Shown here: in pieces, positions 3,390 through 64,000 of the stretch
Numbering within the stretch: the first letter of the stretch is position 1
Layout of the letters: each line of letters starts with the position of its first letter
From: Escherichia phage ECO71P1
Sequence record: OP172789
Length of the DNA stretch: 64,000 bases
Strand: one strand, 5' to 3'
Made by a program: the position numbers and the translations under genes
Notes under the pieces: generated by a model
Database searches by the model: none
What the model saw: only the letters and a program-made list of their open reading frames with translations
Told to the model about the DNA's origin: nothing

Positions 3390-3618
3390 GGCTGAATCTA
3401 CCCTCTGTCAATATCCGGTCGTGGATGACTATACCAGTGCAGCGCAGTCGGTTGGCATTGCTTCGCGCCTTTGCTGCTTGATGAGGATTGAACAAGCCAA
3501 ACAAACTAGCCTTAAAAGCAAACTGGTAATATTTGATTAAGGTACTAAGTGCTAACTCAATCCTGTCTAAATTAATCATAATATCACCTCGTCAGAAAAG
3601 CAAATATTTTGATGATAA

Positions 3619-4266
3619 TTATCCTGTGGCCTGCATATTGCGTACATACTTCTGCTCTAATGAATAGATGAAGTCGGCGACCGTCAATCCTTTGGTGTGC
3701 CACTCATACATTGTGTAGCCTGTATTCAGGAAATAGCCGCGCACCTTGTCCATTGCTTCAGATTCCTCCATGGAAGCCATCAGCGCGGCGACGTTATCAT
3801 AAGAAGGCACAAATCCCTTCTTGCGTAGCGCATTGCGCAAATCTTTAGTTCTGAATCCAATCTTGCACAGGTCATCACGGCCCGTTGAAGATGCAACCTT
3901 CGGCAGCGCAAGGAACTCTTTGAGGAACATTGAGATGTTCAAGTCGCCTGCGTCATCAAGCTTCTGGAGTCGGTTGCGACCGCGACCCTTGAATTCACTC
4001 GCACGAGGGTGAGCACCAAAGCAGTGCGCCCCTTCCAGTTTTGGGTCGATGATCATCAAATCTTTGCCTACGCGCAATTCAACATAGTAAAGGTATGTCT
4101 CATCGATAAGCTTCGTGCGCTTACAGTTGATGGAGTCCTTATCGTAACCAAAACCACGCAACACGGTTGAAATCATCCGGTTCATTTCTTCTCCGTGAAC
4201 GTCACTCTCTTTGTTCAGTTCACCAAGATGTTGAAAGAATTTAGCGATGTTGATTGCTTTATTCAT
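3619..4266 (-). CDS. hypothetical protein
   Basis: 215 aa ORF immediately upstream of the helicase gene, stop/start adjacent. Confidence 0.5.
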   Translation of the reverse strand: MNKAINIAKFFQHLGELNKESDVHGEEMNRMISTVLRGFGYDKDSINCKRTKLIDETYLYYVELRVGKDLMIIDPKLEGAHCFGAHPRASEFKGRGRNRLQKLDDAGDLNISMFLKEFLALPKVASSTGRDDLCKIGFRTKDLRNALRKKGFVPSYDNVAALMASMEESEAMDKVRGYFLNTGYTMYEWHTKGLTVADFIYSLEQKYVRNMQATG

Positions 4267-5936
4267 CAGAATTCATCCTTATCTCTTCCTAAAGAACGTT
4301 TGCGTTCAATAACCTTCTTCAAGAATTCAATATCTTCAGGGTCAGATTCATCGCGGATAAGATACGCCAAAATAGTCATCAGGTCAGAAATGTATTCCCC
4401 TGCTTCATTCTTAATCAGCGGCGTAAAGTAACCACGCTGGTTGCGATAGGTTGCAGGCTCAAATCCAAGCTTCGACATGTGCGGCGCAAGGGTACGTGAG
4501 AAAGGCGACTTGCCGCACTTAGCTCTGAAGCCCATAGCGATTGCACCACTAGTGATGTGCCAGCGTCCGCTGTGATGTCGGTCATAAGGCGCGGTGATGA
4601 CGACTTCAACAAGGTCGTTGTCGACCATCTCGTCACGGATAACGCCGCGAGCACGTTCCATTTCGTTCTTGCTGAACTCAGTAAGCATGCGAGACGTTTC
4701 ACCAACAAAAGCGTTGTAACCTGCTTCGCCGTGCTTCTCCATCCACGCAGCACACTCAGCCATCAACTGCCAAACATCTTCTTTCAAAGTGGAAAGGTCA
4801 GCTTGGAAGTCTTTCGACCAGTTCGGTTGCCCGTCCTTGTCTGCGAGTTGGCCAACAAAGATAGGATACACACGACGGTTGCCCGTATCGTCACGCTGCA
4901 TGCCTGCGTATTCGTTGCCGTCCATGATAGCAATCCACTGGCGCGGTTTAACCTGCGTATCTTCAAATTTGAAGTCCAGGTCATCTTCCGTCTTAGTCAG
5001 GAATGCTTTCATGTTTTCGATGTCGGCCTTTTTAAAGCCTGTCATCTCGCCAACGTTCGCGATAATTGAGCGACCCGTAATAGCTCGCAAGAACGGGTTG
5101 AAGTTCTGCGCGGCCAAGTTCAACGGAATCGGTGTTGCGTGGCGGTCGTTCATAATAGCTTCGCAAAGCAGCTTACTGAAATAACTCTTCCCTGCGTTCT
5201 GGCCGCCGATGAGCGCAATGGAGATTGGCGCTTGACAGCCAGGGTTGGTCAGGCGGTTATAGAGCGATAGCCAAAAATACACACCGATTTGTCGGTTTAA
5301 CTCTGTATCGAACGGTCGGAATAGCTCGATAAGGTATTTCTCAATGCGCGCAGTACCGTCCCATTCAGGCAGCTTCTTGTAGAAGAAGTCCATCAGGTCG
5401 TCGCGCTGATAACGCATGGCCCATTCCTTATAGGATTGAGCGACCTGACGTGAGTTTGGGTTGGACAGGCCTGCTGCGTCGACAGCGGCAACTATCTCTG
5501 TGACTTCCAACGTCCGGTCGGTGAATGTTTCTCCGCGATGGTCGACTAAGCGTCCACGAAAAGTATCTTTGTGAGGGAATGGGACAATGCCGCTTCCCTT
5601 ATCAAACAACGCGTCGAAAACCGCATAACGGTTCATGTCACTCGTCCGGTCCGCCTGAAGAACAAAATCATCTTTCGTCGGTTTGTAGTGAGGGAACTTG
5701 ATTACCTGAAGTGAGGCGAGCAAACGTGCTCTTTCAACCAAGTCTTCTTCACCGTAGCACTCCATGCGCTCTGCATCTTTCTCAACAGCCTTATGCTGGA
5801 GGCTGATTTTAGCTCTGGTGCCTTGCTGCTCTGCCGCTTGCATCTCTTCTGAAACACCAGCGTCTTGAATTTCGTCAAAGGTTGCACCAAATTCATCACC
5901 TGTATCCTCTGGAAGATTGTCATGTTCAATTGACAT
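4266..5936 (-). CDS. P-loop NTPase, putative replicative helicase (D5 / primase-C-terminal-like)
   Basis: Walker A-like IALIGGQNAGKSYFSKLL in 556 aa protein; strong AGGAGG RBS before ATG at 5936. Confidence 0.55.
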   Translation of the reverse strand: MSIEHDNLPEDTGDEFGATFDEIQDAGVSEEMQAAEQQGTRAKISLQHKAVEKDAERMECYGEEDLVERARLLASLQVIKFPHYKPTKDDFVLQADRTSDMNRYAVFDALFDKGSGIVPFPHKDTFRGRLVDHRGETFTDRTLEVTEIVAAVDAAGLSNPNSRQVAQSYKEWAMRYQRDDLMDFFYKKLPEWDGTARIEKYLIELFRPFDTELNRQIGVYFWLSLYNRLTNPGCQAPISIALIGGQNAGKSYFSKLLCEAIMNDRHATPIPLNLAAQNFNPFLRAITGRSIIANVGEMTGFKKADIENMKAFLTKTEDDLDFKFEDTQVKPRQWIAIMDGNEYAGMQRDDTGNRRVYPIFVGQLADKDGQPNWSKDFQADLSTLKEDVWQLMAECAAWMEKHGEAGYNAFVGETSRMLTEFSKNEMERARGVIRDEMVDNDLVEVVITAPYDRHHSGRWHITSGAIAMGFRAKCGKSPFSRTLAPHMSKLGFEPATYRNQRGYFTPLIKNEAGEYISDLMTILAYLIRDESDPEDIEFLKKVIERKRSLGRDKDEF

Positions 5937-6002
5937 TTAATCCTCCTGATACGGCTTTGTTATATTGTTGCATGGATATATCCTTTCAGGGTGCGGTAAA
6001 TA

Positions 6003-6022
6003 AACGCCAGAAATCTGGCGTT
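6003..6022 (-). terminator. putative rho-independent terminator for the minus-strand unit
   Basis: Hairpin AACGCCAGAAATCTGGCGTT; T-rich run follows on minus strand. Confidence 0.4.
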
Positions 6023-6072
6023 GTATATTAATATAGTAAAACTCAGTTTAAAGCAATATAACTGGTGAACTA

Positions 6073-6363
6073 TCAGCAAGGAAATTGGTCAGCGTATGCC
6101 TTTCTCAATTTGTTTACTGACTGAACAGAATGAAGGTATTGGCAATCGGTGAAGATGCGGCGCAAACAATCCATAGAAGACAGGTCATCGTTAGTAACCA
6201 CCAGAATCTCTTCCGAAGGGCAACCAGCTTCTTTGGCAATCTCATTAAGATTTGAGCCATTAATTTCTTCAACACGTTTCACCTCATCGATACCGTAAAC
6301 ATCAACGGCAACTTCGATGTCGTCATCGCTGATATTCTCACCATAAAGAATTACAATATTCAT
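6073..6363 (-). CDS. hypothetical acidic protein
   Basis: 96 aa ORF. Confidence 0.45.
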   Translation of the reverse strand: MNIVILYGENISDDDIEVAVDVYGIDEVKRVEEINGSNLNEIAKEAGCPSEEILVVTNDDLSSMDCLRRIFTDCQYLHSVQSVNKLRKAYADQFPC

Positions 6364-6464
6364 TTACTCACCCCTGCCAAATAATATGCCATATCCAATA
6401 CATATAATAGCCCCAGGATGATAACAAGGGAAATGATTAATGTGTATTTCTTTACGGCTTTCAT
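6360..6464 (-). CDS. small hydrophobic protein (about 34 aa, one predicted TM helix)
   Basis: Hand translation MKAVKKYTLIISLVIILGLLYVLDMAYYLAGVSK; stop overlaps next start (ATGA); below ORF-track size cut-off. Confidence 0.3.
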   Translation of the reverse strand: MKAVKKYTLIISLVIILGLLYVLDMAYYLAGVSK

Positions 6465-6482
6465 ATGTATCTATACCTAAAT

Positions 6483-6746
6483 TTACTGTTGAGGATCACC
6501 GATGGAGCCTGTCGCATCCCATTCAACGCGTGCTGAACGGTCTGCTGGTGGACAACCTTCTCCGGCGTAAAGCTCCACCACGCCTTCGTGAGAGCAGCAC
6601 TGGCACTCTACAAGGTCGCCGTCCTCCCAGGCACCTTCCTCTGCATTGCGATGCTGCCGCACCTTGATCACATCGCTTGCACAGTTAGGACAAGTCGAAA
6701 GACTGCTTGTGACGTTCCAAACAAACTCGTTGCGGAAAGCACCCAT
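6483..6746 (-). CDS. hypothetical protein with zinc-ribbon-like Cys pairs (CPNC...CQCC)
   Basis: Start trimmed to MGAFRNEF to abut upstream gene. Confidence 0.4.
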   Translation of the reverse strand: MGAFRNEFVWNVTSSLSTCPNCASDVIKVRQHRNAEEGAWEDGDLVECQCCSHEGVVELYAGEGCPPADRSARVEWDATGSIGDPQQ

Positions 6747-6747
6747 G

Positions 6748-7038
6748 CTACACCTCTTGATCTCGCTGTTGTTGAATCGCGGCTGCAGCTTCTTCAAAAT
6801 TCACTGGCTCAACGGTAAACGTTGCACTGACAGTGAAGTTGTTAATCGTCAGCAAAGTATTGAAACGCTCTGCATTCAGATTCATCGCCACGTGAGTCGA
6901 AACATTAAGGATTGCGCCAACAACTTCTTCAACCGCATAGCCTTTAAACAGAGGAAGAATTTCATTGACAAGCTTCAGCTCGTTCTCCACGCGAAGTTTT
7001 TGCGCTTCTTCAGTGGTCATCATTTTTGGTTCGTTCAT
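6748..7038 (-). CDS. hypothetical protein
   Basis: 96 aa ORF. Confidence 0.45.
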   Translation of the reverse strand: MNEPKMMTTEEAQKLRVENELKLVNEILPLFKGYAVEEVVGAILNVSTHVAMNLNAERFNTLLTINNFTVSATFTVEPVNFEEAAAAIQQQRDQEV

Positions 7039-7040
7039 TT

Positions 7041-7187
7041 TTATTCCTTAACAAATTCAGAGTAGTGTTTGGCCGCAGCCGATTGGTGGTGAGCCATAAC
7101 ACCTTCAAGGGTGGGAAGCTCTACGTGCTTAGGTTCTGACGAATTTAACAGACCTTCAAGCTCGATGTTCAATTCTTCGCTTTGCAT
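7041..7187 (-). CDS. small hypothetical protein (48 aa)
   Basis: Hand translation MQSEELNIELEGLL...; GAGGTG RBS before ATG; below ORF-track cut-off. Confidence 0.35.
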   Translation of the reverse strand: MQSEELNIELEGLLNSSEPKHVELPTLEGVMAHHQSAAAKHYSEFVKE

Positions 7188-7245
7188 AAATCACCTCTGC
7201 TTCAGTTCATAAAATGATTATAGTTGCTAGAAAAATAAAAGCAAA

Positions 7246-8328
7246 CTATTTTATGCCACCTGCGCGACGATTTATCATATCAAGTTGATTCTCAATATAA
7301 GGCATTACTACTGCTTCGACAAAAGCGGTCCATCCTTTCTTGCCTTCCCCTTTCCGGTGACAGTCGTGAGCGCAACCGAAAACGAATTCATGTTCAGCGC
7401 CAGGGATTGGGCCGCGAAAATAAGCGCCGTATGGGTCGCCGTTGGTGTGCTCTTCACCCCAAGGACAGATGATGCGGCATTTACCTGACATGTTTTCAAC
7501 CACATCGCCATCGGACCCTTCGCCCATCTTATTGCGCGCAAGGATTTGCTGGGCTATCTTATACCAAACAGCGTCATATTTGTATTCGTCAACGTCGATT
7601 TGAATTTCACGCTTTTGCGGCATAACGACGTGGAAACCGAAGGCTTGGCAAATCTCTTCGATTGTGTAGCGCAAAGAATAGTCTGCATGAACAAGTCGGC
7701 AGCGGAACGGGTCGCCGTTCTCATCGACATATTTATAGGGGCCGTCGTGAGTCACACGCTTATTGTTGATGCACCCAGGAACACGACCCACGCGTGTCAC
7801 ATCTTTAATCGTATTGTCGCCGCCCTTCTTGAGTACCATGTTTACGAAAGACCCAAGGAATGCTTTGAACTGAATAAGATGGTCAATCGGTTCTTTAAAG
7901 AAGTACCACAGCTGATGGTTGTTCGGTGAAGTCTCAACAATGACGGTGGGCTTCAGGCGCTCGAAAAAGAATTCCAAATCTAAATCGCCCTTTGACCCTT
8001 TACCGTGTCCGATGTCGTCGACCATCATCGCCATGCCATGACCGAAAGCCGATTCCGTGCGCCAGTATCGCATCTCGCCTGTCTTTGGGTTGGGAGACTT
8101 ACGCATTGAACTTATGCAGGCGTAACCGTTCTGATGTTGCATCAGCGGCTTGCCAAGCTTCCAAGGCTTAGGCCAGAAGCTGCTGTTAATCTTTTTGCCG
8201 CGCTCGTCGGTCTGCACCGTTGCTTCAGGCGCAAACACTGTCATGACGCGTTCATCTTCTGGAATGCCTCTTTGGAGTTCCGTCAAAAACTCTTCGATTA
8301 TTTTTGCTTCTTCTCTTAAACTAGCCAT
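7246..8328 (-). CDS. putative primase-like replication protein (AEP/prim-pol-like DxD motif plus C-terminal Cys/His cluster)
   Basis: MMVDDIGHG acidic motif, C-terminal CPWGEEH...GCAHDCH; GAAGGAAAG RBS; sits beside helicase gene. Confidence 0.4.
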   Translation of the reverse strand: MASLREEAKIIEEFLTELQRGIPEDERVMTVFAPEATVQTDERGKKINSSFWPKPWKLGKPLMQHQNGYACISSMRKSPNPKTGEMRYWRTESAFGHGMAMMVDDIGHGKGSKGDLDLEFFFERLKPTVIVETSPNNHQLWYFFKEPIDHLIQFKAFLGSFVNMVLKKGGDNTIKDVTRVGRVPGCINNKRVTHDGPYKYVDENGDPFRCRLVHADYSLRYTIEEICQAFGFHVVMPQKREIQIDVDEYKYDAVWYKIAQQILARNKMGEGSDGDVVENMSGKCRIICPWGEEHTNGDPYGAYFRGPIPGAEHEFVFGCAHDCHRKGEGKKGWTAFVEAVVMPYIENQLDMINRRAGGIK

Positions 8329-59483: not shown

Positions 59484-59505
59484 GCCGCGCTATGCGGCTT
59501 TATTA
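59484..59505 (+). terminator. putative terminator
   Basis: GCCGCGCTATGCGGC hairpin followed by TTTATTAT. Confidence 0.45.
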
Positions 59506-59543
59506 TAGTTATTGTTAATCACCCAAATATTGAAGGTAATGAT

Positions 59544-59957
59544 ATGCCAAATAAAAATGATTCTATTCACAATACATATACTAAAGGCAGCGGAATGGCC
59601 TTTGGTGGCAGCATCAAAATTGACGCTCCTGGGATTCACATCCATAATGTTGATGCAAGTTCTGATGTAAGCAGTCGTGATTTGTCCTTGGTCCTCAAGA
59701 ATCAACTCGCTTTGGAATCGCGGTTGGATAGCATCGAGAAATCTCTCGAAAGTCTGCGCGACCAGCTTTATGGGCCTTGCCCCGTTGCGGATGAGTCTAA
59801 GACTGTTAATGTCAACTACGGTCTGATTGACAATATGCTTGGTGCTACATCACGCTCTGCCGTTAAGGCGTATAACATCGAGAATCTGATTGGGCAGATT
59901 TCTGATGGATTTGGCACATCTTGTGTTGCAGGTCGTGAAAGCGATTGTGGTGAGTAG
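59544..59957 (+). CDS. hypothetical protein (start trimmed to MPNKNDS)
   Basis: GAAGG RBS before internal ATG. Confidence 0.4.
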   Translation: MPNKNDSIHNTYTKGSGMAFGGSIKIDAPGIHIHNVDASSDVSSRDLSLVLKNQLALESRLDSIEKSLESLRDQLYGPCPVADESKTVNVNYGLIDNMLGATSRSAVKAYNIENLIGQISDGFGTSCVAGRESDCGE

Positions 59958-59988
59958 ATTTGATCGTTAGTCTTGGATAGTGAATCGT

Positions 59989-60015
59989 GGGTCGCTGTTG
60001 GCGGCCCTTTCTTTT
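59989..60015 (+). terminator. rho-independent terminator closing the plus-strand late unit
   Basis: GGGTCGC-TGTTG-GCGGCCC stem (one G-U pair) followed by TTTCTTTT. Confidence 0.5.
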
Positions 60016-60605
60016 GCCTGCCGCGCAGGAGTGTACTGAAAATTTACTGTGGGTACAAAATAGTACGGTACTGTCTGGGACTTTTTCTTTGAAAAGTTAG
60101 TGGACCAAATGTGTCGTATTTTGATTAGTGTACTGCAAATTTCATCAAGTACCAAAACGCACCAAAAGACCCATGCCCTAAAAACCACACGAACGCAATA
60201 ATCAATCGCCGTTACAGTTTCCAGCGTTACAATTCGAAAGAGAATGATTCGACGCATAATAACATGAAGCATAATGATTCAAAAGCGAATGATTGCGTGT
60301 AGGATAATATCGGTGGGGATTATTCTAGATGTCGGTAATTTCGCATGCGTACTATTTTCGGGCGAAGGGTCGGCATATTTCTCGTTTTAGTTCGGAACGA
60401 AGGGAAAGTTTTGCGCCTTTATAAAACAACGACTTACGCGACCCTCCCTAACGGTCCGATATAGGTGTCTATATAAAACAACGACTTACGCGATGTTCTC
60501 CATTTAACGTAATACCTGTTATGCGAACTAAGGCGCATCTAGACGAAGATTATGCGACGACGAAGGGAAGGATAAAGGAGTTTTCTCGTAGGAGCGCATC
60601 GAGAT

Positions 60606-60637
60606 AGGGACGAAGAAAAGCCGCGACTAAGCGCGGC
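60606..60637 (-). terminator. rho-independent terminator downstream of the 60658-60948 gene
   Basis: GCCGCG-ACTAA-GCGCGGC hairpin; TTTTCTT follows on minus strand. Confidence 0.5.
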
Positions 60638-60657
60638 CTATTAGTAACGGAAGGGTA

Positions 60658-60948
60658 TTATAAGGAGGCGATTTTAAAATAAGTTACTTCGCCGCCGAGT
60701 TGCGGTACAGCGATATATTCGCCGCCGATTTCGGTAATCGTATAGACGAAGCCGTTAATCGTTACGCGGTAGGATACTACGTCCTCGTCGCGATACTTGT
60801 AAAGGTCGAGGAAGTTGATCGGTTCATAAATAGACTCGATAGTTGCGTCTACGTTAGAGAGATAAACGCTCTCTAAAGTCTCGCCAAATACGTTAGAGTT
60901 TTCGGAAGTCTCGACGCGAGCGGAACGGATAGCGGCTAAAGTAATCAT
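60658..60948 (-). CDS. small acidic protein, island paralogue 1
   Basis: 96 aa; paralogous to 61758-62042 product; AGGAG RBS; CG-rich codon usage. Confidence 0.5.
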   Translation of the reverse strand: MITLAAIRSARVETSENSNVFGETLESVYLSNVDATIESIYEPINFLDLYKYRDEDVVSYRVTINGFVYTITEIGGEYIAVPQLGGEVTYFKIASL

Positions 60949-61054
60949 AATATTCTCCTAGTTAGTCGGGAGGGTAGCGACCTATTCGCTACCTCACCCC
61001 TCTCGATATAAATAAGTATAATCTTAGTGTACGGATAAGTAAAGCACTTTTTTT
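60949..61054 (-). promoter_or_regulatory. promoter-leader cassette copy 1 (TTTACT / TATACT sigma70-like boxes, leader stem-loop, anti-SD CTCCC)
   Basis: Aligns with copies at 61537-61618 and 61654-61757. Confidence 0.5.
60973..60993 (-). ncRNA. 5' leader stem-loop (transcript GGTAGCG-AATAGGT-CGCTACC)
   Basis: Covaries with 61713-61733 stem while loop AATAGGT is conserved. Confidence 0.45.
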
Positions 61055-61063
61055 CGTTTTTTT

Positions 61064-61216
61064 CTATTTATTTAAAGCGCGTCTTCCAAGTTCGACGACC
61101 CAAGCGGCGGCATCTTCCGCCTTATTAAATTCGTATAGATGCTTCTTATCTTCGAAGACGTAAAATAAAATACGTCCGAACTTATTAGCCTTCGCGCTTA
61201 ACTCGATAGTTTTCAT
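61064..61216 (-). CDS. small hypothetical protein (50 aa)
   Basis: Hand translation MKTIELSAKANKFGRILFYVFEDKKHLYEFNKAEDAAAWVVELGRRALNK; AAGGAG RBS. Confidence 0.3.
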   Translation of the reverse strand: MKTIELSAKANKFGRILFYVFEDKKHLYEFNKAEDAAAWVVELGRRALNK

Positions 61217-61233
61217 CTTCTACTCCTTTTTCG

Positions 61234-61536
61234 TTATTTTGCGATAAAATATTTATAAGCCTTATCGCCTTCTACGTCGATATACTCGACGATAATTAAC
61301 GCTTCGCCGCGCGGCGTAACCGACTCGATAAGGGTAACGGCTTCGTCGTCGGTCTTCGCGAAGCGGATGGCGCTACGTTCGGCGTACTTTATATCGTCGA
61401 AGGATAATCCGACGAAGGCGACGGCGCGCGCTTTAATAATTCCCTTTTCGAGTTCCGCGTTAACGGCGGCGATAAGAGAGCGAACGGTTAAGCGGTCTTC
61501 GTCGTAAGTAAGAATAGAAGAAATTAAAGTAGCCAT
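61234..61536 (-). CDS. small acidic hypothetical protein
   Basis: 100 aa; AGGAG RBS; leader shares cassette with the paralogue genes. Confidence 0.45.
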   Translation of the reverse strand: MATLISSILTYDEDRLTVRSLIAAVNAELEKGIIKARAVAFVGLSFDDIKYAERSAIRFAKTDDEAVTLIESVTPRGEALIIVEYIDVEGDKAYKYFIAK

Positions 61537-61618
61537 AATAAAACTCCTAATGCTAGTAAGGGAGAACGCCTCCCGTCTCGATATAAATAAGTATACGCGA
61601 GTGTACGAAGAAGTAAAG
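61537..61618 (-). promoter_or_regulatory. promoter-leader cassette copy 2 (drives the 61234-61536 gene)
   Basis: Imperfect inverted repeat with copy 3 around a 35-bp spacer. Confidence 0.45.
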
Positions 61619-61653
61619 AAAAAAGATAAAATAATTTATCGCATTTTTATCGA

Positions 61654-61757
61654 AAAAGTGCTTTACTTTTTTCTACACTATATTATAATGTACTCATATC
61701 GGGACGGGATGAGTTAACGAATAGGTCGTTAACGCCTCTCCCAACTAGGAGTTTAAA
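61654..61757 (+). promoter_or_regulatory. promoter-leader cassette copy 3 (TTTACT-N17-TATTATAAT, leader stem-loop, anti-SD, AGGAG)
   Basis: Strong -10 at 61681-61689; hairpin 61713-61733; SD 61747-61751. Confidence 0.5.
61713..61733 (+). ncRNA. 5' leader stem-loop (GTTAACG-AATAGGT-CGTTAAC)
   Basis: Compensatory stem changes relative to the 60973-60993 hairpin. Confidence 0.45.
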
Positions 61758-62042
61758 ATGGCTATTCTTAACGTTTCTTCTATCCGTAACGCTATCGTCG
61801 AGAACTACGGCGTAAAACAAAATTTATCCGAAGTCTACGCCGCGAACGTAGACCAAACTATCGAAGCGGGTGGGGTAACGGTCGCCGAGGCTTTTAAACT
61901 TTACGCGGCGTTACCGGAATCGGACCGCGAAGCCTTCGAAGTAAACGTTAACGGATACTTCTTCGAAGCGGTCGAAATCGGTAATATTTTACTCGTTATG
62001 GGCGAAGAAGAATTTGAGACCTTCTCCCTCGTCGAAGCGTAA
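61758..62042 (+). CDS. small acidic protein, island paralogue 2
   Basis: 94 aa; shared MxxLxxxSIRxAxVExxxxxxxLxxVYxxNVDxTIE pattern with paralogue 1. Confidence 0.5.
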   Translation: MAILNVSSIRNAIVENYGVKQNLSEVYAANVDQTIEAGGVTVAEAFKLYAALPESDREAFEVNVNGYFFEAVEIGNILLVMGEEEFETFSLVEA

Positions 62043-62122
62043 GAGAGGATTTTTAGAGCGTCGTGCGCGGCGCTTTAATAAAATTCTTTCGCGCCTAGCG
62101 CCCTAACAAATAGGAGTTTATT

Positions 62123-62749
62123 ATGGTTAGCTTAAATCGCTTCTCGACTAGCGGCGACGTTATCGCAACTAAGACCGCCGACCTCGTTGCATTCTATAAT
62201 GCAAATTCCGGCTCAAAACCGATTAAGAAGTTTGCGGACCGCCGGACCGCCGAGACTCGCGTAATCGCGTTAATCGAGTCCTTAAACGCGCTCGATGAGC
62301 CGTCCAACGAATCGCCCATCCCCGACGCGAAGCCGCGCGAGGAAGTGCCCAGCGATGTAAAAACGCATAAGGCGCGTGCGGTCGTTAAAAAGGCCGAGCC
62401 GACTCAGGAAGAACTCGACGCGATGACCGACGAAGAGTATGAAGCCTTCGTTAAAAGCGGCCTAAACGATAGTGCAAATTGCGTAGTGCAAAATGGAACT
62501 CCTTCTCATCGCCGTTCGAATAGCGAAGGTATTGCAAAAAGTTGGGATAACAAGGAAGTAGCGCAAAAGCGTCTCACCCGTAACGCCGTTATGGTCGAGG
62601 GTGTAGGAGAGTTCAAATCGGTCCGCGTAGCGTTCGCCGCGCTGGGCTTACCGGATAGCAAGCACATTCGCTTCCGTATGAAGCTCAAGGAAGCTGGGCG
62701 CTTGAACTTTGAGTTCGGCAACAAGTCCTACACCTTCCAGATCATCTAA
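62123..62749 (+). CDS. hypothetical protein (contains two in-frame copies of the TAGTGCAAA repeat)
   Basis: 208 aa; AGGAG RBS; CG-rich codon usage. Confidence 0.45.
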   Translation: MVSLNRFSTSGDVIATKTADLVAFYNANSGSKPIKKFADRRTAETRVIALIESLNALDEPSNESPIPDAKPREEVPSDVKTHKARAVVKKAEPTQEELDAMTDEEYEAFVKSGLNDSANCVVQNGTPSHRRSNSEGIAKSWDNKEVAQKRLTRNAVMVEGVGEFKSVRVAFAALGLPDSKHIRFRMKLKEAGRLNFEFGNKSYTFQII

Positions 62750-62755
62750 TCGAAT

Positions 62756-62778
62756 GGCGGCCCTTCGGGGTCGCTTTT
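62756..62778 (+). terminator. rho-independent terminator with UUCG tetraloop
   Basis: GCGGCCC-TTCG-GGGTCGC followed by TTTTC. Confidence 0.55.
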
Positions 62779-62799
62779 CATAGTGCAAATTGGTGGCTT

Positions 62800-63063
62800 A
62801 TGAATACGCTTATTCTCATCGCTACGTTGTCCATCGGAAGTGGTCGCACCTTATCCCTTTATGATCATAGTGCAAATTGCGCTTACCCAACGCGAGTTGC
62901 GGCGATAGTTAATAGTGCAAATCGAATGCTATTCGAGACTTGTTGGCGGGTTGATAACGAGAAAGGGCGCATCGTCTTAGGTTATAGTGCAAATCTGCTG
63001 GTGGAGTCGTTCGACTGGACGGCGGAAGGTCGTAAATTGTTACGTAAAGTGACTAAAAGATGA
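62800..63063 (+). CDS. questionable ORF spanning three repeat copies
   Basis: 87 aa ORF whose SAN tripeptides are encoded by the repeat; may be non-coding. Confidence 0.2.
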   Translation: MNTLILIATLSIGSGRTLSLYDHSANCAYPTRVAAIVNSANRMLFETCWRVDNEKGRIVLGYSANLLVESFDWTAEGRKLLRKVTKR

Positions 63064-63124
63064 CTTATAATAATACACTTTCTAACGCGTTTATGGTTGT
63101 AACCTTCCCCGTCGTATTACCGAT

Positions 63125-63165
63125 GGCCCTAGAAGTGGAGAAAATGTGTTCTAGGGCCGTTTTAT
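63125..63165. terminator. hairpin between converging transcription units
   Basis: GGCCCTAG ... CTAGGGCC 8-bp perfect stem, followed by GTTTTA. Confidence 0.4.
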
Positions 63166-63177
63166 AGTGCAAATTGG

Positions 63178-63650
63178 CTAGTGGCGGGAGAATTGCTCAC
63201 CCTCTTTGGCAGCCTCTCCAAAATCCTTGTAGAAATCGTCCATGGAACGGCCCATTTTACTATTGCCGTTTTCATCAATCATCGTGATGCCGTAGATGAT
63301 ATTCAGTTCACGAATGGCATTAAGCTTGGCTGAAGCCGCGACTTCTGGATCACGCACAAGCTTCACTAAATTGTGGATGGAACTCTTTACGCTCCACAAT
63401 TCCTTCAATGGCATCTCTTCCATACGCTTCTTGTAGCGCATCTTGTAGTACGGATTGCGTTGCGTGCACAGGATTCGCTGGCCAGTGTAGTTATCGGTCG
63501 CAACCTCCATGCCAAATACTAGTGCAAAAGCTGCGCGCATGTCATGGCCCTGAATAACAAGGTCAATGAACTCATCGAATAATGCCTGATTATGCTCTGC
63601 AAATCGTGGGTCTTCAAAGTCTTCAGGCATTGCTACATAATCTTGACTCA
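63178..63650 (-). CDS. hypothetical protein (start set to MSQDYVAMPEDF; start codon lies inside a repeat copy)
   Basis: ORF track extends via TTG through the repeat array; ATG start favoured. Confidence 0.4.
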
Positions 63651-64000
63651 TAGTGCAAATCCCATAGTGCAAATTAATAGTGTGAATTATACAATGATTG
63701 AACATTATATTCAAGTGCAGATTGATGTTCAAATTGGCTGTAAACGTACACAAATCATAGTGCTAAATGAATATCGGACCGTGGTGCGTGGTGTACTGTT
63801 TGATACGTATAAAAGAAATCCATCCCTTTCGCCGCTTGTTATGCAAATCAATGACTTAGCCGCTGCTGGCTGGTTGAAGCGTATCATGACGTATCATCCG
63901 TATTGCCGCAAGTCTTTGTTTTTACTTATATCTTACGGATAATACGTATAAATATAAGTTTAGTATAAGTATGAGGATGTAGAAAAAATTAATTTAAATT

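Follow-up and report, generated by a model that had tools for sequence, protein, structure and literature searches.

Several short DNA sites are known to be recognised by the small terminase subunit (TerS) of phages, among them R1–R3 of lambda cosB, the pacL and pacR boxes of SPP1, pac within gene 3 of P22, and the hexamer repeats of P1 pac. Lambda also carries cosQ, a polar packaging-termination signal placed upstream of the end cut, where terminase coming from one side reads it, and T7 has short-repeat arrays, SRL and SRR, next to its terminal repeat. Here we describe an array of 12 copies of a short motif, TAGTGCAAAT, around the small-terminase gene terS in a 64,000-nt stretch of Escherichia phage ECO71P1 (sequence record OP172789; the whole stretch is called the window below). 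The array resembles known pac and cos sites in that these are short sites, repeated or asymmetric, that lie within terS or beside it, near the end made by terminase and at one locus (PMC9611059). However, the known sites comprise one to seven copies in ~100–250 bp, whereas the window array has 12 copies over 1.3 kb, mostly in genes and on a single strand throughout. The phage, moreover, has exact ends and a terminal repeat of 3.8 kb, and the solved homologue of its TerS, from phage E217, did not bind DNA.

Lambda cosQ is an orientation-dependent element, as the window array may be, but it is a single short element ~100 bp from cosN. Origin iterons, such as those of lambda ori and of three viral contigs (L085, L070 and L123) with a TAGTGCAAAAT core, are likewise direct repeats, some within a gene and with the same 9–11-nt core, but they are tandem with a 20–23-bp period by an initiator gene, whereas the array is irregular and no initiator was found nearby. 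Chi sites cluster at the termini of P1 and of lambdoid phages without an anti-RecBCD function (PMC12315714). The clusters of P1 and lambdoid LLS share with the array many short oriented copies that face a near DNA end, a tolerance for positions within genes, and turnover of sites, but the motif is unrelated to Chi in sequence and one exact Chi is left in the window. The terminal repeat of T5 contains repeat regions at the injection-stop region, with DnaA boxes proposed to act in the entry stop (bioRxiv 10.1101/866236). The T7 and T5 arrays are, like the array described here, short repeats that accompany the direct terminal repeat in virulent E. coli phages and are kept among relatives; in contrast, they are non-coding, have other sequences and, in T5, mixed orientations, while the window copies lie in coding sequence and are strictly oriented.

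A motif array inside the terminal repeat surrounds terS

The window comes from a Wifcevirus, an E. coli myovirus that is distant kin of PB1 and E217, and its top matches are phages Mansfield, WFH, ECML-117 and ~25 others at 93–96% identity. It is reversed relative to the deposited Wifcevirus genomes, and ~4 kb of the genome absent from it was read from Mansfield instead. The motif occurs as eight exact copies of ATAGTGCAAAT and four near-copies, all on the plus strand within 62469–63768:

62469–62479, plus strand: copy 1, exact, in the open reading frame (ORF) 62123–62749, read as GAT-AGT-GCA-AAT (D-S-A-N)
62484–62494, plus strand: copy 2, variant TAGTGCAAAAT with one extra A, 14 nt after copy 1, V-V-Q-N in ORF 62123–62749
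62780–62790, plus strand: copy 3, exact, directly after a terminator hairpin (62757–62779) and followed by TGGTGG (62791–62796), ending 9 nt before the ATG at 62800
62867–62877, plus strand: copy 4, exact, in ORF 62800–63063 (H-S-A-N)
62912–62922, plus strand: copy 5, exact, in ORF 62800–63063 (N-S-A-N)
62984–62994, plus strand: copy 6, exact, in ORF 62800–63063 (Y-S-A-N), with an exact Chi 2 nt later
63164–63174, plus strand: copy 7, exact, directly after a bidirectional terminator (63125–63163) and followed by the near-Chi GCTAGTGG (63177–63184)
63520–63528, plus strand: copy 8, variant TAGTGCAAA(ag), antisense within terS
63650–63660, plus strand: copy 9, exact, its first two bases belonging to the terS start codon
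63664–63674, plus strand: copy 10, exact, 14 nt after copy 9 in the terS 5' leader
63678–63688, plus strand: copy 11, variant ATAGTGTGAAT, 14 nt after copy 10
63757–63768, plus strand: copy 12, degenerate ATAGTGCTAAAT, upstream of the terS promoters

In dinucleotide-preserving shuffles, ATAGTGCAAAT is expected 0.02 times and reached a maximum of 1. All ten window occurrences of the 9-mer TAGTGCAAA fall within the 1.3-kb array, and TAGTGC was not found on either strand of the Mansfield stretch that covers the ~4 kb outside the window. The motif is thus confined to the array rather than spread through the genome at similar density. Start-to-start distances are 14–486 nt among exact copies and at most 355 nt when near-copies are counted. 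A first-pass annotation of the window had counted at least nine repeats, which holds with the near-copies included but not for exact copies, and had described irregular spacing (about 10 to 490 bp), a constant plus-strand orientation and an occurrence in intergenic DNA and ORFs alike, all of which the copy positions bear out. It had also ruled out CRISPR, and we likewise reject a CRISPR array, with 11-nt units irregularly spaced here against CRISPR repeats of 23–48 nt with near-constant spacers.

The array is related to the following features:

60165 to ~64011, no strand: direct terminal repeat (DTR) of ~3.8 kb, running 10–11 nt beyond the window end (...TTCAAAAT), from alignment of the relatives' physical ends
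63178–63651, minus strand: terS, small terminase subunit of 157 aa, matched by phmmer to PDB 7UXE 'Small terminase' (the E217 TerS decamer) with E=9e-33
63686–63732, minus strand: two overlapping sigma-70-like terS promoters, TTGAAC-17-TATAAT and TTGAAT-17-TATAAT, predicted by consensus scan alone

The inner boundary of the DTR is at 60165, where the right physical end of WFH aligns, and the left end lies beyond the window end, with the left physical ends of Mansfield, WFH and WFC 10–11 nt past position 64000. Therefore, the array lies inside the DTR, 0.25–1.5 kb from the left physical end. Mansfield is annotated with a 3673-bp DTR (PhageTerm) exactly at the array's end of the genome, and terminal repeats of ~3.7 kb were reported for WFC and WFH (Korf, 2019; PMC6563267). 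The terS product was matched in a profile search with E=3e-67 and is 100% identical to a Mansfield coding sequence annotated as terminase small subunit. Motif copies flank, overlap and lie within terS, and copies 9–11 fall between the predicted terS −10 boxes and the terS ATG. The gene spans 63178–63651 and does not begin at 63650 as first annotated; because its ATG is the complement of CAT at 63649–63651, the repeat at 63650 contributes two bases of the start codon rather than all three. Counted inward from the left genome end, terS is the first gene, with its near-consensus sigma-70-type promoters ~300 nt from the terminus. In phages, terS is normally a late function.

The array is conserved in five distantly related lineages

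Distant relatives were found through TerS homology, and four of these carry an array of the same motif:

Pantoea phage Kyle (Kylevirus): 14 TAGTGC copies, 482–1483 nt from its left end; TerS 44% identical
Pantoea phage PA1: 13 TAGTGC copies in the same region; TerS 40% identical
Metagenomic contig L169: 9 TAGTGC copies in the same region; TerS 52% identical
Metagenomic contig L170: 10 TAGTGC copies in the same region; TerS 48% identical

Each of these arrays is on a single strand and in the same place relative to terS, with no motif copies upstream of terS. For Kyle and PA1, no shuffle reached the observed copy count, and TAGTGC[AG]A was not found in the 49 kb of Kyle outside its repeat. The 57 sites give the consensus rTAGTGCAAATyG. 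The DNA between copies is near saturation and barely alignable, with just 90 bp shared between the window and Kyle and 63–73% identity between Kyle and PA1. Some copies are common to Kyle and PA1 while others differ, so that single copies have been gained and lost. Positional homologues of copy 6, TAGTGC(A/G)AATCTGGT, are present in Kyle, PA1, L169 and L170, and in Kyle and PA1 a copy also stands just after the gene homologous to the ORF ahead of copy 3. This turnover with a kept number of sites fits selection for a site cluster. The first-pass annotation had proposed a search of related phages, from all of which the motif might have been absent; instead, an array kept in five distantly related lineages indicates a real cis-acting signal, most likely one that serves packaging or genome-end handling. 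The array is a real, strongly selected and undescribed cis element: we found no description of the motif or array in the literature, where the motif string matched just primers and unrelated sequences.

The array is conserved in one TerS clade. It was not found in ~13 other lineages with TerS homologues, including Pbunavirus and the Serratia Myosmarviruses (among them phage MTx), whose DTR is similar, and no comparable array of another motif was found near terS in these ~13 lineages, the weak candidates being four copies of CGCGGCAA in L034 and five of CGCGGCA in L178. A scan of a viral collection for two nearby copies of TAGTGCAAA returned mostly unrelated tandem repeats or origin-type iterons and no further phage group with a dispersed array. 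Contig L119 has six 15-nt tandem copies of CCGACTAGTGCAAAA.

In an alignment of ten Wifcevirus genomes that are 92–98% identical, the copies are held in place with few changes. Copies 3, 8 and 11 are invariant, as is the Chi site at 62997–63004. Copy 5 differs by single bases in Mansfield and RCIP0319. In the WFC clade, copy 6 reads ATAGTGCGAAT (A-to-G) and copy 9 has an extra A; copy 12 is variable, with a perfect match to ATAGTGCAAAT in Eco4M-7. In Eco4M-7, RCIP0319 and ECML-117, an unrelated patch of equal length (~30 nt) stands in place of copies 1 and 2, and what looks like patch replacement adds or removes two sites in ORF 62123–62749 with the protein length unchanged. Across 62469–62500 (alignment columns 370–400), the window encodes DSANCVVQNGT and these three phages DAPVGANKIA.

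Selection acts on the DNA

When read in plus-strand ORFs, the copies encode S-A-N (AGT-GCA-AAT) or V-V-Q-N, and the third frame gives a TAG stop. Each of the four SAN tripeptides encoded in these two ORFs is spelled AGTGCAAAT, for which codon usage gives P ~0.015 each, while the window's long ORFs contain just two more SAN tripeptides, both with other codons. The codons are fixed and copies also stand in intergenic DNA and antisense in terS; therefore, the constraint is on the DNA, and we reject a protein-level S-A-N repeat. The array is under DNA-level selection, and the small ORF 62800–63063 is shaped by the motif constraint. This 87-aa ORF has a signal-peptide-like N terminus and homologues in Kyle, PA1, L169, L170 and MTx; the MTx homologue lies outside the terminal repeat.

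Compared by eye with consensus sequences, the motif fits none of sigma-54, MotA-box, ops, marbox or DnaA-box sites. The canonical copies have three mismatches in the eight specified positions of the DnaA box (TTATNCACA / TGTGNATAA, by eye), and TGTGAATTA at 63681–63689, in copy 11, is one mismatch from the consensus TGTGNATAA (by eye). We rejected a DnaA-box array of the T5 injection-stop type, since only the variant at 63678–63689 comes within one mismatch.

TerS of the array-bearing lineages

In a TerS tree, the array lineages form one clade (149 of 200 bootstraps). Residues 60–70 of TerS (window 63181–63651) read (K/R/Q)-R-N-P-Y-Y in the five array lineages and E-x-N/T in 13 array-less lineages, including E217. 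The presence of the array coincides with this one clade and with the E-to-K/R/Q change, as a single event, and the motif is invariant within the clade. The acidic-to-basic switch is a candidate specificity determinant, and, by analogy with other small terminases, we infer that the (K/R/Q)-R-N-P-Y-Y stretch lies in the predicted third helix of the TerS N-terminal domain. No rival binder was found near the array. The neighbouring conserved 208-aa protein, of family phrog_4730, was rejected as the specific binder because array-less lineages conserve its C-terminal LPDSKHIRFRMKLK motif equally well.

Separate elements at the repeat boundaries

The first-pass annotation had described split variants of the motif on the other side of the gene island inside the DTR. 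Both sequences are present:

60098–60110, plus strand: first split variant, TAGTGGACCAAAT, with no counterpart seen in Kyle or PA1
60123–60164, plus strand: element just outside the inner DTR boundary, GATTAGTGTACTGCAAATTTCATCAAGTACCAAAACGCACCA and then the boundary, containing the second split variant (60126–60140)

In the relatives, the AGTG part of the second split variant is conserved but its CAAAT part is not, being unconserved in L169, L170 and PA1. We therefore do not count the split variants as motif copies and reject them as spaced half-sites of the motif. Since AGTGTAC ... AAGTACCAA is conserved and the CAAAT half is not, the second is a separate boundary element, and the form tGA-nnAGTGTACnG-N~16-AAGTACCAA is common to all five array lineages. 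The Kyle version, GATTAGTGTACTGTGAAAT (record 3604–3650, reverse strand), ends 24 nt before Kyle's own boundary, as in Wifcevirus, and PA1 (3610–3670), L169 and L170 have an inner-boundary element of like architecture. The element is probably part of the end-cutting signal.

Three further observations concern the boundaries. The sequence GTGTACTG occurs three times in the window, all on the plus strand, at 60031, 60128 and 63791. An outer-boundary repeat family, CGTATCATCCGTA (63884–63950), lies ~120 nt inside the cut and is doubled 45–75 nt outside it, as read from the collapsed assemblies L009, L011 and L012, and an inverted copy, ATCTTACGGATAATACG, stands ~75 nt inside the cut. Near the inner end of the DTR, a non-coding 25-nt direct repeat, CTnTATAAAACAACGACTTACGCGA, is found at 60417–60441 and 60469–60493, 52 nt apart.

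Chi sites beside the motif

The window has one exact Chi and two near-Chi sequences, GCTAGTGG at 63177 and GCTGGTTG at 63869. Chi sites in the terminal regions are as follows:

62997–63004, plus strand: the exact window Chi, GCTGGTGG, on the motif's strand with its 3' side towards the left physical end
Kyle, record 260–1980: 9 Chi, against 3 in 49 kb elsewhere
PA1, 5858–7430: 7 Chi
L169: 7 Chi
L170: 9 Chi
Each of two Myosmarviruses (MTx record 186–1283), without the motif array: 4 Chi

The Chi sites of the relatives are on a single strand, with the 3' side facing the left end, and in the same 2 kb as the motif, so that correctly oriented Chi is interleaved with the motif in four of the five array lineages. 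The motif copies, too, all lie on the strand whose 3' end is the left terminus. Three window copies have a Chi or near-Chi 0–2 nt after them, and a 23-nt motif-plus-Chi unit is duplicated, the unit at copy 7 being 87% identical to 62982–63004. The motif itself matches just four of the last seven Chi positions (by eye). The clusters of the relatives are a new instance of the terminal Chi clustering of P1 and lambdoid phages. Terminal Chi clusters imply that the left end is exposed to RecBCD, and the terminal repeat is probably used for RecA-mediated repeat-to-repeat recombination.

Other features of the terminal repeat

For eight ORFs in or adjoining the DTR, Pfam gave nothing above threshold and PHROGs gave function-unknown families only; neither search found an initiator gene in the DTR. 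Rfam covariance models had no match at E<=1 in 59500–64000. The variable gene island inside the DTR contains promoter-like, near-identical blocks of 24–56 nt at 60997–61052, 61572–61620 and 61653–61708. These have the form TTTACT-16/17-TATACT or TATAAT, with GTGTAC in each spacer, and drive divergent small genes. The gene content of the island varies among Wifceviruses, and ECML-117 has an annotated 'transcriptional regulator' there.

Discussion

We tentatively favour, at somewhat less than an even chance, the reading of the array as a putative TerS or packaging recognition array. The array is in and next to the small-terminase gene and is unique to one locus, its presence matches the TerS clade and the (K/R/Q)-R-N-P-Y-Y change, and in P22, SPP1 and lambda the recognition sites are as a rule found within terS or adjacent to it (PMC9611059). 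With TerS as the presumed reader and packaging as the presumed outcome, TerS rings would bind the clustered rTAGTGCAAATyG sites around and inside terS and so mark the copy of the terminal repeat at each concatemer junction. Through the common direction of its sites, all towards the left genome end, the array could give the terminase polarity, and the large subunit, TerL, would cut at the repeat boundaries, which bear the separate conserved elements. In Wifceviruses, the three 14-nt-spaced sites over the terS leader and start codon might also let TerS limit its own synthesis. As a variant, the sites could act on a translocating terminase as a polar signal to slow down or terminate before the end is cut, comparable to lambda cosQ.

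Several observations weigh against the packaging reading. E217 TerS, the homologue of solved structure, did not bind DNA appreciably in vitro (PMC9611059). Phages with TerS homologues, Serratia MTx with a similar repeat and Pbunavirus with a similar layout, manage without an array, so that the packaging chemistry common to these phages does not depend on it. With twelve sites over 1.3 kb, the array exceeds every known pac or cosB site by far in size and irregularity, and the motif is missing from both DTR boundaries: ~250 nt separate the outer cut from the closest copy, and AGTG is all that the inner element has in common with the motif. The TerS substitution is a single phylogenetic event, and a single-sequence AF2 model of TerS, with a pLDDT of 44, was unusable for placing it in the fold. 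Finally, autoregulation by TerS would not be general, since Kyle and PA1 have no copies upstream of terS.

The motif could instead be a polar end-processing signal that acts with Chi or in its place, which we consider unlikely, although it would explain the strict orientation, the interleaving with Chi and the turnover of sites as well as a packaging array does. A helicase-nuclease or other motor entering the left end would read the motif on the 3'-ending strand, or meet a protein bound to it, and the outcome would be end protection or repeat recombination leading to concatemers and recombination-dependent replication. A 3' side towards the DNA end is the geometry that makes Chi active for RecBCD, and every copy has its 3' side towards the nearest physical end. 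The same-strand Chi clusters of Kyle, PA1, L169 and L170, the Chi or near-Chi that adjoins three window copies, and the duplicated motif-plus-Chi unit all speak for this explanation, as does a copy number kept while sites turn over, which is expected where each signal is recognised with a modest probability. In Wifcevirus the motif is at its sharpest and Chi is almost lost, which would fit replacement, but this pattern is a sample of one. Moreover, TAGTGCAAAT has no real similarity to GCTGGTGG, and we know of no Chi sequence similar to the motif and of no enzyme that reads it. The Myosmarviruses carry a Chi cluster without the motif, the common orientation of motif and Chi is a single inherited event, and several motif–Chi adjacencies are not independent because they are positional homologues in one small ORF. 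Nonetheless, terminally clustered Chi does matter for P1 and lambdoid phages (PMC12315714).

Operators for a phage-encoded regulator, such as an asymmetric-site repressor of the P1 C1 kind that shuts off or times the genes of the terminal repeat including terS, seem quite improbable. P1 C1 itself is a precedent, with repeated asymmetric operators that are scattered and in one orientation; the three 14-nt-spaced copies between the predicted terS −10 boxes and ATG, and the two that abut terminators at gene ends, are placed as operators might be. However, most copies are in ORFs and distant from predicted promoters, and the promoter-overlapping arrangement is specific to Wifcevirus because copies upstream of terS are missing in the other four lineages. 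No DNA-binding protein specific to the clade was identified, and the ECML-117 'transcriptional regulator' has no counterpart in the window. We give only a small probability to a replication origin with iteron-like sites for a phage or host initiator and the A+T-rich 63690–63760 as unwinding element, even though the copies are direct repeats, three tandem copies adjoin that A+T-rich stretch and the near-DnaA box TGTGAATTA, and two copies lie in the linker of a conserved protein's gene, much as lambda ori lies in gene O. Unrelated viral contigs in IMG/VR (L085 at 7455–7530, L070 and L123) have four or five tandem 22–23-bp iterons, GGTAGTGCAAAATnTGCAC, with the core TAGTGCAAAAT, in a DnaD- or replisome-organiser-like gene followed by a DnaC-like loader, which looks like an origin inside a gene; we treat the match of cores as coincidence and keep the origin reading at low weight. 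The spacing is irregular over 1.3 kb and not helically phased, with just three copies in tandem (14 nt), no initiator gene is adjacent, the phrog_4730 protein being equally conserved in array-less lineages, the tandem triplet and A+T arrangement is absent from Kyle, PA1, L169 and L170, and the canonical motif differs from the DnaA box at three positions.

There is a slim chance that the sites serve a conserved DNA-binding protein of the enterobacterial host (Enterobacterales), either to anchor or pause the entry of the first DNA or to titrate a host factor. The 10–12-nt motif stays constant while nearby phage proteins diverge to 40–50% identity, the Chi clusters suggest Chi-using enterobacterial hosts, and arrays of repeats and DnaA boxes are retained in the terminal repeat of T5-like phages (bioRxiv 10.1101/866236). 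Set against this, Serratia phage MTx, with an enterobacterial host and the same genome layout, lacks the motif, and the T5 arrays are non-coding whereas the window copies are mostly in genes. We know of no E. coli factor with the motif as its recognition sequence. A phage-specific promoter element, which the first-pass annotation had offered, is close to refuted. The motif is short, conserved and oriented, and two copies are intergenic ahead of ORFs, but the remaining ~64 kb, in which a class of phage promoters would be expected to recur, lacks it. Copies within ORFs are 45–87 nt apart, or 14–87 nt at the widest range, the copy at 62780 ends 9 nt before an ATG and leaves no room for a leader with a Shine-Dalgarno sequence, no sigma-70 hexamer matches, and the orientation is antisense to terS. 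The general idea of that annotation, sites for a sequence-specific protein, has fared better, with packaging recognition the best supported of its options; for the partition and replication-initiator readings, a supporting gene context was not found.

If the motif were, as we think improbable, a new orientation-dependent signal of the Chi, KOPS or cosQ kind, with one strand read by a translocating terminase or helicase-nuclease, it would control DNA-end protection, repeat-to-repeat recombination or a packaging stop. Such a signal would have arisen in one enterobacterial PB1-like clade beside terminal Chi clusters, largely replacing them in Wifcevirus. It would be a new member of a very short list (Chi, KOPS, cosQ) and would tie packaging or end protection to recombination in long-terminal-repeat phages. 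On the favoured reading as a packaging recognition array, the array offers a concrete, conserved candidate recognition sequence for the enterobacterial branch of the PB1-like phages, together with a candidate specificity residue in TerS. The PB1-like group includes the Pbunavirus therapy phages, and in E217 terS is far from terL. The motif marks the repeat and genome ends in assemblies, and careless recoding of it should be avoided when such phages are engineered. Through the array, which DNA is recognised by the TerS of a PB1-like myovirus becomes a directly testable question.

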